From contig NJBF01000079.1 of the NCBI GenBank assembly GCA_003144275.1, forward strand, positions 1 to 8,074: a stretch of 8,074 nt of DNA, given 5' to 3'. The notes beneath the pieces are model-generated. The model did not search any database, had not been told where the DNA came from, and saw only the letters and a program-made list of their open reading frames with translations. Positions 3,606 through 6,048 of this stretch are shown here, in pieces; positions within the stretch are counted from its first letter, which is position 1, and the number at the start of each line of letters is the position of its first letter. The DNA is from Candidatus Heimdallarchaeota archaeon B3_Heim (GTDB taxonomy: Archaea > Asgardarchaeota > Heimdallarchaeia > Hodarchaeales > Hodarchaeaceae). Made by a program: the position numbers and the translations under genes.

Positions 3606-4232
3606 TTGAAGACAATTATGGAATATTCTGGAGAGTATTTGGTTAAGCTTGCGAGAAGAACTATTGAAACCTATTTAATGAATAAAAAGAAAATTAACCC
3701 CCCAAAAGATGCTCCTGGAGACCTCATGGATCAATCAGGTGTATTTGTGACTCTCCATCGTATTGATCAAGGTGATGAACCAGTTTTACGGGGATGTATT
3801 GGAAGAATTCAAAGTCCAGGGAGTACTCTCATCCAATCTACCATTGACTCTGCTATAGATGCTATTATTCACGATTATCGATTCCCTAATGTTACCTTTC
3901 CCGAATTAGATAAGATTACTGTCGAGGTTACAATCTTAACAGTTCCTGAAAAAATCATTGTTGAAGATCCAAAAGAATACTTTGGAATTATTAAGATTGG
4001 CCGACATGGGTTAATTGCAGAGCGAGGTTCATTCCAACGTGGGTTATTATTACCCCAAGTACCAGTCCAACAGGGATGGGATATTCAGACGTATCTTGAT
4101 CATGTATGTCAGAAAGCTGGGTTAATTTCACATGCCTGGCAAGATCTTGAAACAAATATTTTGTTTTTTGAGGGATTTATCTATTCAGAACTTGCCCCAA
4201 ATGGAGAAATAAAACAAAATATAGCTCATTGA
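3606..4232 (+). CDS. AMMECR1-domain protein (archaeal TIGR00296-like)
   Basis: GEYLVKLARRTIE, GVFVTL, LRGCIG, DYRF (usually DPRF), GRHGLI, GLLLPQV, C.KAGL. Start is either TTG 3606 or ATG 3618. Confidence 0.95.
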   Translation: MKTIMEYSGEYLVKLARRTIETYLMNKKKINPPKDAPGDLMDQSGVFVTLHRIDQGDEPVLRGCIGRIQSPGSTLIQSTIDSAIDAIIHDYRFPNVTFPELDKITVEVTILTVPEKIIVEDPKEYFGIIKIGRHGLIAERGSFQRGLLLPQVPVQQGWDIQTYLDHVCQKAGLISHAWQDLETNILFFEGFIYSELAPNGEIKQNIAH

Positions 4233-5338
4233 GTCTCTATTTTTTCTAAAAATATTTCAATTTTCTTTTTATTAATAGGATTGGGTAAAGCAATTTCTAA
4301 TTTATCCCGATAAGCGCAGCAAGTTTTATCATCTAATGACTCAATTGAAGGTACATTTCCATGATAACCAAATTGTATTGGCCGTAAACCAACTATATTC
4401 GATTGAGTCTCCATTGCACTTAGTGCTTTAAAACTAATCGTTTCACCATTATGATTAAAGCAGGTAGGACTGATAAACGTCTGAACACTTCCCTTTGATA
4501 CGTAATTTTGGCATATTGTTTCACAGACGGTCTGACAGTAGAAACAAAGATTATCTTCATCCTTATGTAAATCAAAAAATGATTTTAGTTCAATAAAAGT
4601 ATGTATTGGAGAAAAATGTTTTTCCACATATTTAATAAAAATATTTTCTGACTTTTTACCAGTTCTGAAGAACAATGGAAGAATTTTGACTCCCCTCTTT
4701 TTCATAAGCAATGCGGCTAATATTGAGTTCACATTAGGACGAATTAAAGCTATAGCAGTTCCTTGTGAGTTTGAAGGGATTCCATCCATCCCCTTTATGA
4801 TCTCTGAATAAATAAATGTCAATTTTCCTCGAACGTCAAGGAATATCTCAACTTGAGGTGTCGTAAGATTGACTTTAAGTCCAGAAATGTCAGACTCTAA
4901 AATTTTACTTCCTAGTTTTGCGGCGATTTCCATTGAGGAAAATGGATGTAAGCCCTCACGTCTGACCCTTACTGCAAAGCTACTATGAGGTGGAAAAAAT
5001 TCAAAAGCCAATTTGACACCATTGGCTAGGATTTCTTCTTCATCACTTCTAATGACGAAAGCTTGACTTAAAGAGGAGATTCCACTTATTTGCTGTGCAA
5101 TTTGTAGAATAATATTCTGAGGAATAACTGGAGGATTAAAATTGATTAGAAGACGACCACGAAAATCAATAATCGAAAAAGTTAACTCTGCCCTTTTCAA
5201 TAGTTCATTGATATTTGAACGAAGTAAACTGATCATACGACGTCTGGTTCTTCGACTTTTGATCCCAAGTTCTCCTCCCATCCGAATGAGTAGAACATTA
5301 CTACCAATAAGTTCAGAATAATCCTTTTTTTGATCCAA
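4226..5338 (-). CDS. ThiI-like THUMP-domain protein with degenerate PP-loop (probable pseudoenzyme)
   Basis: NFLD-like LLIRMGGELGIKS; THUMP SFAVRVRR...FSSMEIAAKLG...VNLTTP..EIFLDVR; then KGMDGIPSNSQGTAIALI-RPNVNS-ILAALLMKKRG, where ThiI has SGGxDS. TTG start. 7-nt convergent overlap with AMMECR1. Confidence 0.88.
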   Translation of the reverse strand: MDQKKDYSELIGSNVLLIRMGGELGIKSRRTRRRMISLLRSNINELLKRAELTFSIIDFRGRLLINFNPPVIPQNIILQIAQQISGISSLSQAFVIRSDEEEILANGVKLAFEFFPPHSSFAVRVRREGLHPFSSMEIAAKLGSKILESDISGLKVNLTTPQVEIFLDVRGKLTFIYSEIIKGMDGIPSNSQGTAIALIRPNVNSILAALLMKKRGVKILPLFFRTGKKSENIFIKYVEKHFSPIHTFIELKSFFDLHKDEDNLCFYCQTVCETICQNYVSKGSVQTFISPTCFNHNGETISFKALSAMETQSNIVGLRPIQFGYHGNVPSIESLDDKTCCAYRDKLEIALPNPINKKKIEIFLEKIETQ

Positions 5339-5405: not shown

Positions 5406-5477
5406 ATGAGCGATTCAGAGTAACTATAATCTATCATAGCAAAGCTCAAACTTGTCAGGTTTCATCATTACGCTCAT
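5406..5477 (-). ncRNA. Box C/D guide sRNA (dual guide; predicted 23S rRNA targets in H69 and H71)
   Basis: AUGAGCG-UA-[C AUGAUGA 5468-5462]-AACCUGACAAGU-[D' UUGA 5449-5446]-GCUUUGCU-[C' AUGAUAG 5437-5431]-AUUAUAGUUACU-[D CUGA 5418-5415]-AU-CGCUCAU. Perfect 7-bp terminal stem and two guides of exactly 12 nt. Confidence 0.9.
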
Positions 5478-5501
5478 AAATATGAATTTGAGGATTTTCC
5501 T

Positions 5502-5918
5502 TTAATCCTCAAGATCATCGTCGTCTTCTTTGAGTTCCTCTGAAGCACGTATTAATTCAGCCATGGAATATTGTTGATCAAACTTTTTCCAGATCGAAGA
5601 TACTATTTCTTCATCGAGTCCTTTAACCTTCTTTTCGACCAGTTTTTTAGCGTCAGTACGTTTCGCAGGTAACTCTGTAAATCCCCACATGGCAGCTGGC
5701 ACAGCTTCAGGGTTTTTCTCAATGATGTAAACCGTTCCCTCTTGTTGTTGGAATGAAAAGAACTGAGGTTGGATAAGTGGACAATCTGATAATTTATGTA
5801 GTCCAGTTACAGTAAATAAATGATTACATCTTGTTTTATCTGGGGATGTTGCAGATGTTTTAAACGCACAGTGACCTTTATCAAGGTATCTCCATGCTGT
5901 GATTATTTCCGTTTTCAT
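5502..5918 (-). CDS. mak16: Mak16-like protein (eL28/Mak16 family; large-subunit biogenesis factor homologue)
   Basis: W..L....CAFK...C.......TGLH....CPL....F......G.VYII.K.PE..P..MW....L aligns with the recalled Mak16 N-terminus (IW..L....FCSFK...FCRNEYSLTGLCNRSSCPL..S.YAT.....G..YLY.K..ER..FP..LW). Acidic C-terminus EEDDDD-like (EDDDDLED). GAGTGAT SD 5 nt before the ATG. Confidence 0.85.
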   Translation of the reverse strand: MKTEIITAWRYLDKGHCAFKTSATSPDKTRCNHLFTVTGLHKLSDCPLIQPQFFSFQQQEGTVYIIEKNPEAVPAAMWGFTELPAKRTDAKKLVEKKVKGLDEEIVSSIWKKFDQQYSMAELIRASEELKEDDDDLED

Positions 5919-5975
5919 GATTTATCACTCTAATATATTGAAAGATAACTTTATTGTTTAATACAATGGGATAAT

Positions 5976-6048
5976 AGCCGCTGGTGGGACTTGAACCCAC
6001 GACCAACAGATTACAAATCTGTCGCTCTACCAACTAAGCCACAGCGGC
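5976..6048 (-). tRNA. tRNA-Thr(UGU), intronless, CCA not encoded
   Basis: GCCGCUG acceptor stem pairs with CAGCGGC; D arm GCUU-AGUUGGU-AGAGC; anticodon arm ACAGA-UU UGU AA-UCUGU (anticodon 6015-6013); T arm GUGGG-UUCAAGU-CCCAC; U73 discriminator, typical of archaeal tRNA-Thr. Confidence 0.98.

Follow-up and report, generated by a model that had tools for sequence, protein, structure and literature searches.

The stretch of DNA analysed here, 8,074 nucleotides from the genome of a Hodarchaeales (Asgard) archaeon (hereafter, the window), is rich in translation and ribosome-biogenesis genes between positions 924 and 7888, where eIF2-gamma, PIN_9, tRNA-Thr, L28e-like, sRNA, THUMP, AMMECR1, and GPN-loop GTPase genes are found. 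A 408-aa ORF at 924-2150 has no Pfam match. The box C/D sRNA discussed below sits in the spacer between two genes that share its strand, the L28e/Mak16-like gene and the THUMP gene, and no ORF of at least 50 aa overlaps it. The features are collected in Table 1. The L28e-like protein has an acidic tail, and its gene directly precedes the sRNA in 22/22 genomes of the genus.

Table 1. Coordinates of the sRNA, of its parts, and of the neighbouring genes in the window, with those of a repeated 23S-like unit on another contig (C65) of the host genome.
Feature	Position	Strand	Observation
tRNA-Thr(UGU), further upstream of the sRNA	5976-6048		
L28e/Mak16-like gene, upstream of the sRNA	5502..5918	-	Pfam PF01778, E 2.4e-7, 31.8 bits, slightly below cut-off
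Whole box C/D sRNA (72 nt)	5406..5477	-	direct reading; covariance model R1, 99.7 bits
Terminal stem, 5' arm AUGAGCG	5471..5477	-	perfect 7-bp pairing with 5406-5412
C box AUGAUGA	5462..5468	-	UGAUGA invariant in 22/22 genus homologues
D' guide AACCUGACAAGU	5450..5461	-	nt 2-11 pair with 23S helix 71 CUUGUCAGGU; nt 5 opposite the G1945 equivalent
D' box UUGA, variant of CUGA	5446..5449	-	NUGA in 20/22 genus homologues, GAAA in 2
D'-C' linker GCUUUGCU, 8 nt, possible 2-bp GC/GC clamp	5438..5445	-	genus alignment A1
C' box AUGAUAG, variant	5431..5437	-	AUGA invariant in 22/22
D guide AUUAUAGUUACU	5419..5430	-	nt 1-11 pair with 23S helix 69 AGUAACUAUAA; nt 5 opposite the A1913 equivalent
D box CUGA	5415..5418	-	invariant in 22/22
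Terminal stem, 3' arm CGCUCAU	5406..5412	-	pairs with 5471-5477
THUMP / ThiI-ferredoxin-like gene, downstream of the sRNA	4226..5338	-	Pfam; syntenic in 22/22
~400-nt unit copies, contig C65	3-116, 1922-2098, 2344-2387, 3362-3826, 8529-8710, 12355-12735, 14719-14832		

Read directly on the minus strand, these 72 nt have the complete organization of an archaeal box C/D sRNA: 5'-AUGAGCG UA AUGAUGA AACCUGACAAGU UUGA GCUUUGCU AUGAUAG AUUAUAGUUACU CUGA AU CGCUCAU-3'. A first-pass annotation of this DNA, which left the strand unstated, had described complete elements with two 12-nt guides and a perfect 7-bp stem, and all of these are present at 5406-5477. Its claim of four complete boxes holds for C and D, which follow the consensus (RUGAUGA and CUGA, respectively), but D' and C' are only variants. 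These internal boxes, although off consensus, keep their GA dinucleotides (AUGA of C' in 22/22 genus homologues, UGA of D' in 20/22), and their sequence suggests that they are able to form a second kink-turn or kink-loop. The C-D' and C'-D spacers are exactly 12 nt each, for an expected length of ~12 nt, and the perfect 7-bp stem joins the RNA ends near boxes C and D. Within the linker, 97.7% of cells retain the clamp pairs 39-45 and 40-44 (numbering of alignment A1), and one double change is seen. The single-strand folding energy is ordinary (z = -1.3), which is expected, since the guides have to stay open.

A strict C-12-D'-linker-C'-12-D pattern finds one site only in the 3.95-Mb host genome (36% G+C), namely this sRNA, and zero matches in the reversed genome used as a control. 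The Rfam search suggested by the first-pass annotation gave a divided answer: no curated C/D family matches at or above its gathering threshold, the best matches being snoZ105 (20.8 bits for a threshold of 45) and sR12 (16.5 bits for a threshold of 38), but all 20 weak matches are C/D-box families and lie on the minus strand. The snR63, SNORD46, and snR75 families are absent from these matches, even at E values up to 10. As for the protein partners, fibrillarin (271 bits) and Nop5 (224 bits) genes are adjacent on contig C57 of the host genome, which also contains two L7Ae-family genes; the L7Ae/Nop5/fibrillarin machinery is, therefore, encoded by the host.

The sRNA is strongly conserved within its genus. 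BLAST retrieves one copy in each of the 22/22 genus genomes, at 80-99% identity, and the 22 homologues align without gaps. The invariant columns are UGAUGA of box C, nucleotides 2-10 of the D' guide, AUGA of box C', nucleotides 1-11 of the D guide, and CUGA of box D, while nucleotide 11 of the D' guide is nearly invariant. The guide ends predicted to be unpaired vary (U/G/A/C at nucleotide 1 of the D' guide, A/C/U at nucleotide 12 of the D guide), and so do the linker and the flanks. The terminal stem is present in 22/22 homologues, with differences in both sequence and register. Because these register shifts blurred a count of pairs at fixed alignment columns, that count was replaced by a duplex test carried out on each sequence, in which the two flanks of the same homologue form a duplex of -12.9 kcal/mol on average, versus -8.2 kcal/mol for non-cognate flanks. 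RNAalifold proposed a weak, internal fold for the genus alignment, running through the invariant guide columns and devoid of covariation, which was rejected as a real structure.

Two further comparisons bear on the limits of the element and on how tightly it is constrained. Metagenome contigs from relatives match the window over positions 5406-5479 only, with dissimilar sequence on either side, and this constitutes an independent delimitation of the sRNA. The gene order PIN_9, L28e-like, sRNA, THUMP, AMMECR1 is kept in 22/22 genus genomes, across which protein identity falls to 41-50% for THUMP and 52-64% for the L28e-like protein. As the neighbouring proteins have diverged while the RNA core is invariant, the latter is more tightly constrained than the proteins that flank it.

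The assembly of the host, a metagenome-assembled genome (MAG), lacks the helix 69/71 part of the 23S rRNA, its only 23S sequences being diverged copies of the 3' domain located on contig C65. Guide pairing was, for this reason, assessed on the 23S rRNA of congeners. Three genomes of the same genus are identical over the helix 69/71 region (...GCGGGAGUAACUAUAACUCUCUUAAGGUAGCCAUAUGCCUUGUCAGGUAAGUUCUGACG...), in which the target stretches read GGGAGUAACUAUAACUCUC ... CCUUGUCAGGUA. The D guide forms 11 contiguous Watson-Crick pairs, out of 12 nt, with helix 69 (AGUAACUAUAA), and the D' guide forms 10, also out of 12 nt, with helix 71 (CUUGUCAGGU). Complementarity thus exceeds 9 nt for both guides, and the N+5 pairs are Watson-Crick (U-A1913 and C-G1945) on the 23S of all three congeners. 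The N+5 nucleotide of the D guide is the second A of GUAAC, which is A1913 in E. coli numbering, and that of the D' guide is the G of CCUUG, G1945, located 32 nt away. The guide sequences quoted in the first-pass annotation were, thus, right, as were the two N+5 positions and their spacing, given there as about 32 nt and here exactly 32 nt; its guess of a eukaryote-like helix 69 stem also proved correct, the congener stem reading GGGAGUAAC.

The numbering relies on known pseudouridines. The three U residues in GUAACUAU are pseudouridines in E. coli, namely Psi1911, 1915, and 1917 (PMC2794176), which places the A targeted by the D guide at 1913. As there are no indels over the following 32 nt, the nucleotide targeted by the D' guide is G1945. 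E. coli 1915 and 1917 have their yeast equivalents in Psi2258 and Psi2260 (PMC2794176), so that yeast Am2256 corresponds to A1913, and the distance from 2256 to 2288 is likewise 32. The assignment of Am2256 to snR63 and of Gm2288 to snR75, given in the initial reading of the sequence, is confirmed, and methylation of both nucleotides is almost complete in yeast (PMC5199042). The two marks are also catalogued in human, Arabidopsis, tomato, tobacco, and Ostreococcus, with a constant distance of 32 nt, and neither of them is catalogued in Pyrococcus abyssi (PMC11542601).

Conservation in relatives, which had been named as a check of the first reading, is strong: in addition to the 22/22 genus genomes, guides and targets co-vary in other Asgard families. 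Homologues beyond the genus were collected with a covariance model and pattern searches, and each was set against the 23S rRNA of its own lineage. The D guide co-varies with rRNA positions 1910 and 1918, and the D' guide with positions 1946, 1948, and 1950. For example, the rRNA change from UAUAA to UAUGA is paralleled by a change from UUAUA to UCAUA in the guide, and the rRNA change G1910C, in family f3, by a C to G change in the guide. In helix 71, the rRNA variants CUUGUCAGGU, CUUGUCAGAU, CUUGUCGGAU, and CUUGCCGGAU are matched, in that order, by the guides ACCUGACAAG, AUCUGACAAG, AUCCGACAAG, and AUCCGGCAAG. Family f4 combines UAUGA and either CUUGUCAGAU or CUUGUCGGAU in its rRNA with the guides UCAUAGUUAC and either AUCUGACAAG or AUCCGACAAG, and Atabeyarchaeum the rRNA CUUGUCGGAC with the guide GUCCGACAAG. 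Five further families, with CCUUGCCGGAU in their rRNA, carry guides containing GGCAAG; among these, the guide UAUCCGGCAAGG of genome G087 forms 12/12 pairs. Across these lineages, position 5 of the D guide faces the same A in every lineage checked, and position 5 of the D' guide faces the same G in 12/13 lineages.

Two families depart from this scheme. In family f3 (L116-L141, L146-L148), the helix 69 guide is retained (UCAUAGUUAG, facing GCUAACUAUGA in helix 69), and the D' guide (CAAGGCAUU) is shifted, pairing with the adjacent upstream AAUGCCUUG of helix 71, around position 1940. About 25-30 nt upstream of the f3 sRNA, there is a conserved A/T-rich block, AAAAAAGAUAAUUAU, that looks like the RNA's own promoter. 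Lokiarchaeia, too, have the A1913 guide, and retargeting of the D' guide also concerns the Lokiarchaeia-like family f19. In family f4, the C-D' spacer is 11 nt long, and strict counting would shift the target by one nucleotide; in G078, one of the f4 genomes, a guide and the genome's own helix 71 are mismatched at one position. The f4 homologues (L069-L075, L106, L107, L223) are ~105 nt long, the linker being replaced by a 29-32-nt hairpin between D' and C' that shows compensatory changes (UCAGG/CCUGA, UCGGG/CCCGA, UUGGG/CCCAA). Their boxes are non-consensus, with AUGAAGA as C, and CCGA or CGGA as D.

Many Asgard families have kept the helix 69 guide and the helix 71 guide together, and the homologues found outside the genus lie in unrelated gene contexts. 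In all, 177/400 Asgard genomes contain the A1913-guide motif together with its box spacing, versus ~65 genomes (~70 hits) for a reversed-pattern control. The motif is rare in the largest family (6/135 genomes), and an A1913 guide was not found in the genomes of family f5, which belongs to the same class. Four guide-pattern matches in f5 were rejected as homologues, since they lie in apparent coding sequence and have no C box. The 23S rRNA of f5 (L081, L083-L085, L087-L089, L091) has a C at position 1915 of helix 69 (GUAACCAUGAC), a position that is near-universally U. When prokaryote species, each represented by one genome, were scanned with the pattern, nearly all homologues came from MAGs with a Hodarchaeota or Heimdallarchaeota label, Candidatus Hodarchaeum mangrovi among them, which identifies the window as DNA of a Hodarchaeales (Asgard) archaeon. 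One contig labelled Bathyarchaeia (L173) and two bacterial contigs were also retrieved, but have no C box and look like chance matches. The covariance model also gave weak hits, which are not homologous, in G021, G033, and G011 (second hits).

Several peculiarities of the rRNA itself were observed along the way. Contig C65 of the host genome (L003), 15 kb long and without any other part of the 23S, carries a ~400-nt unit in about seven copies, complete or partial (Table 1). This unit and domain VI, the 3' end of the real 23S rRNA of the genus, are 77-81% identical. Similar stand-alone pieces of domain VI are found in at least six other genus genomes. They may be integration-site remnants or a repeat family. 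In two f4 genomes, G028 (L007) and G078 (L092), the 23S is interrupted by an insertion of ~850-880 nt, after GACUCU and before UAAGGUAGCC, presumably an rRNA intron located between the two predicted methylation sites. Finally, the only full-length 23S of one same-genus MAG (L004, G001:C57) reads GGGGGUAACUAUGACCC / CCUUGUCGCUUAAUUGGCGAC in helices 69/71, unlike the genus' own fragment on G001:C38, and is probably carried by a foreign contig binned into this MAG.

How the sRNA is produced can be approached from its position. In the window, the L28e-like gene ends with a stop codon located 24 nt upstream of the sRNA, which makes this gene its likely co-transcription partner. Across the 22/22 genus genomes, this distance is about 20-40 nt, and no conserved A/T-rich promoter-like element was found between the stop codon and the sRNA. 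The likeliest scenario is, therefore, that of a shared transcript: the sRNA would probably derive from the 3' end of the L28e-like transcript, by co-transcription and subsequent trimming to its protein-protected core. One polyA metatranscriptome run contains contigs at least 99% identical to the window, over positions 5641-5947 only, in the L28e-like ORF; such data are uninformative on a 72-nt non-polyadenylated RNA. Two other runs, labelled 'metatranscriptomic WGS', are probably DNA, and among the assembled contigs of public runs, none of those derived from RNA libraries extends over the sRNA. The location of the sRNA behind an L28e-like gene recalls the eukaryotic snoRNAs that are hosted in ribosomal-protein genes.

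On these grounds, the 5406-5477 element is best read as a functional dual-guide box C/D sRNA, predicted from its sequence to methylate the A1913 and G1945 equivalents of the 23S rRNA, with a probability of about 0.88. By analogy with known particles, the terminal stem would join boxes C and D into a kink-turn, boxes D' and C' would form a second one, and L7Ae would bind each of them, with a Nop5 dimer and two fibrillarin molecules completing the sRNP. The D guide would then pair with 23S nucleotides 1909-1919 (5' strand and loop of helix 69), and the D' guide with nucleotides 1942-1951 (helix 71). Fibrillarin would transfer the methyl group of SAM to the 2'-OH opposite the fifth guide nucleotide upstream of each box, and the methylated nucleotides would be the A1913 and G1945 equivalents, that is, those of yeast Am2256 and Gm2288. 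As the targets are 32 nt apart, a single particle could hold both strands of domain IV simultaneously, which could also aid the folding of this domain.

This last role could, in principle, be the main or the only one: the RNA would be part of a real C/D sRNP acting as an rRNA-folding chaperone on the helix 69 and helix 71 strands, with one or both sites left unmethylated. Such a function has been proposed for paired nearby guides (PMC4644070, PMC6009581), and it would agree with the 32-nt spacing and with the conservation of the guide pair in many Asgard families. Conserved guides with a mismatch at N+5 are also on record (PMC6009581), and the 11-nt D' spacer and degenerate boxes of f4 point the same way. 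Nevertheless, both N+5 pairs are Watson-Crick in every lineage checked, bar one ambiguous case, the host genus has canonical 12-nt spacers, and yeast methylates these same nucleotides almost completely (PMC5199042). A chaperone role is, moreover, compatible with methylation. A particle acting mainly or only as a chaperone is improbable.

Still less credible is a cis-acting element of the neighbouring mRNAs, either an L7Ae-binding kink-turn or a structure at the 3' end of the L28e-like transcript, that would control the L28e-like or THUMP gene. The constant position shortly after the L28e-like stop codon in 22/22 genus genomes, without a promoter-like element, is what such an element would show. 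It would, however, have no need for two stretches of 10-11 nt complementary to the 23S rRNA, even less for stretches that track rRNA changes in other lineages, and the homologues outside the genus are found in unrelated gene contexts. As for a coincidental grouping of short box-like motifs in an AT-rich spacer, the shortness of the boxes, the 36% G+C genome, and the ordinary fold could be invoked in its favour, but the conservation data practically refute it: over 22 species whose flanking proteins have drifted down to 41-64% identity, boxes and guides show no variation, guides and targets co-vary across the phylum, and the genome holds a single pattern match, with zero in the control.

The dual-guide methylation sRNA favoured here closely resembles the archaeal box C/D sRNAs described so far (PMC4644070, PMC6009581), with which it shares the C/D'/C'/D boxes, 12-nt guides, terminal stem, length of ~60-70 nt, and N+5 rule, as well as two targets less than 100 nt apart, located in two helices, 69 and 71, that have been singled out as methylation hotspots. 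It differs from them by its origin, a mesophilic Asgard lineage, and by its degenerate internal boxes. Dennis et al. (2015) listed helices 68, 69, and 71 as archaeal methylation hotspots, with predicted sites dense around A1912 (PMC4644070). Lui et al. (2018) reported that in ~45% of Pyrobaculum sRNAs the targets of both guides are within 100 nt, and that exact methylation sites are mostly unconserved between groups (PMC6009581). The closest precedent is Sac-sR113 of Sulfolobus acidocaldarius (PMC4644070, Additional file 1), whose D guide CUCAGAGUUACU is followed by CUGA in the same register (GUUACU/CUGA) and is, thus, directed to the A1913 equivalent of helix 69, as is the D guide described here. 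Its D' guide (CAUAAAAUAG) is, in contrast, unrelated to helix 71, and the RNA is too short to judge common descent. In the sRNA lists of the seven species covered by PMC4644070, there are no guides containing CGACAAG, GACAAGG, or ACAAGGC, and none comparable to the D' guide directed to helix 71.

The first-pass annotation is borne out in every part that could be examined, but the degree of novelty had, accordingly, been overstated in it: helices 69 and 71 are known hotspots, the A1913 guide of Sac-sR113 is known, and dual guides to nearby sites are the norm. The sRNA architecture, the helix 69/71 hotspot, and the pairing of nearby targets are established archaeal features, and no new mechanism is revealed. 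Asgard C/D sRNAs themselves appear to be essentially undescribed in the searchable literature, no paper on them having been found in the literature searched.

The eukaryotic counterparts are two separate snoRNAs. Yeast snR63 (Am2256; human Am3760, plant Am2257) targets the same nucleotide as the D guide, but this RNA, a eukaryotic snoRNA, has only one known site. Likewise, snR75 (Gm2288; human Gm3792, plant Gm2289) targets the same nucleotide as the D' guide, but is encoded separately in eukaryotes. No sequence similarity to the sRNA was detected for either of them with Rfam. The descent of the snR63/SNORD46-type and snR75-type snoRNAs from the two halves of this sRNA is an unlikely scenario. 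If it were true, two snoRNA-guided modifications found throughout eukaryotes, at intersubunit bridge B2a and its neighbour, would have a traceable archaeal ancestor.

Inheritance of the marks themselves can be considered separately from that of the guide RNAs. As the sRNA family is widespread in Asgard archaea, and as both of its sites match marks that are universal in the eukaryotes surveyed, inheritance of the two eukaryotic marks from the archaeal lineage is plausible and can be tested. This supports an inheritance, by eukaryotes, of at least some of their rRNA methylation sites from the archaeal host lineage, as opposed to their invention with the nucleolus. Isolates of Hodarchaeales have been reported (bioRxiv 10.1101/2025.02.26.640444). 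The A1913 and G1945 equivalents constitute a concrete pair of sites to be looked at in the Asgard strains that are now in culture.
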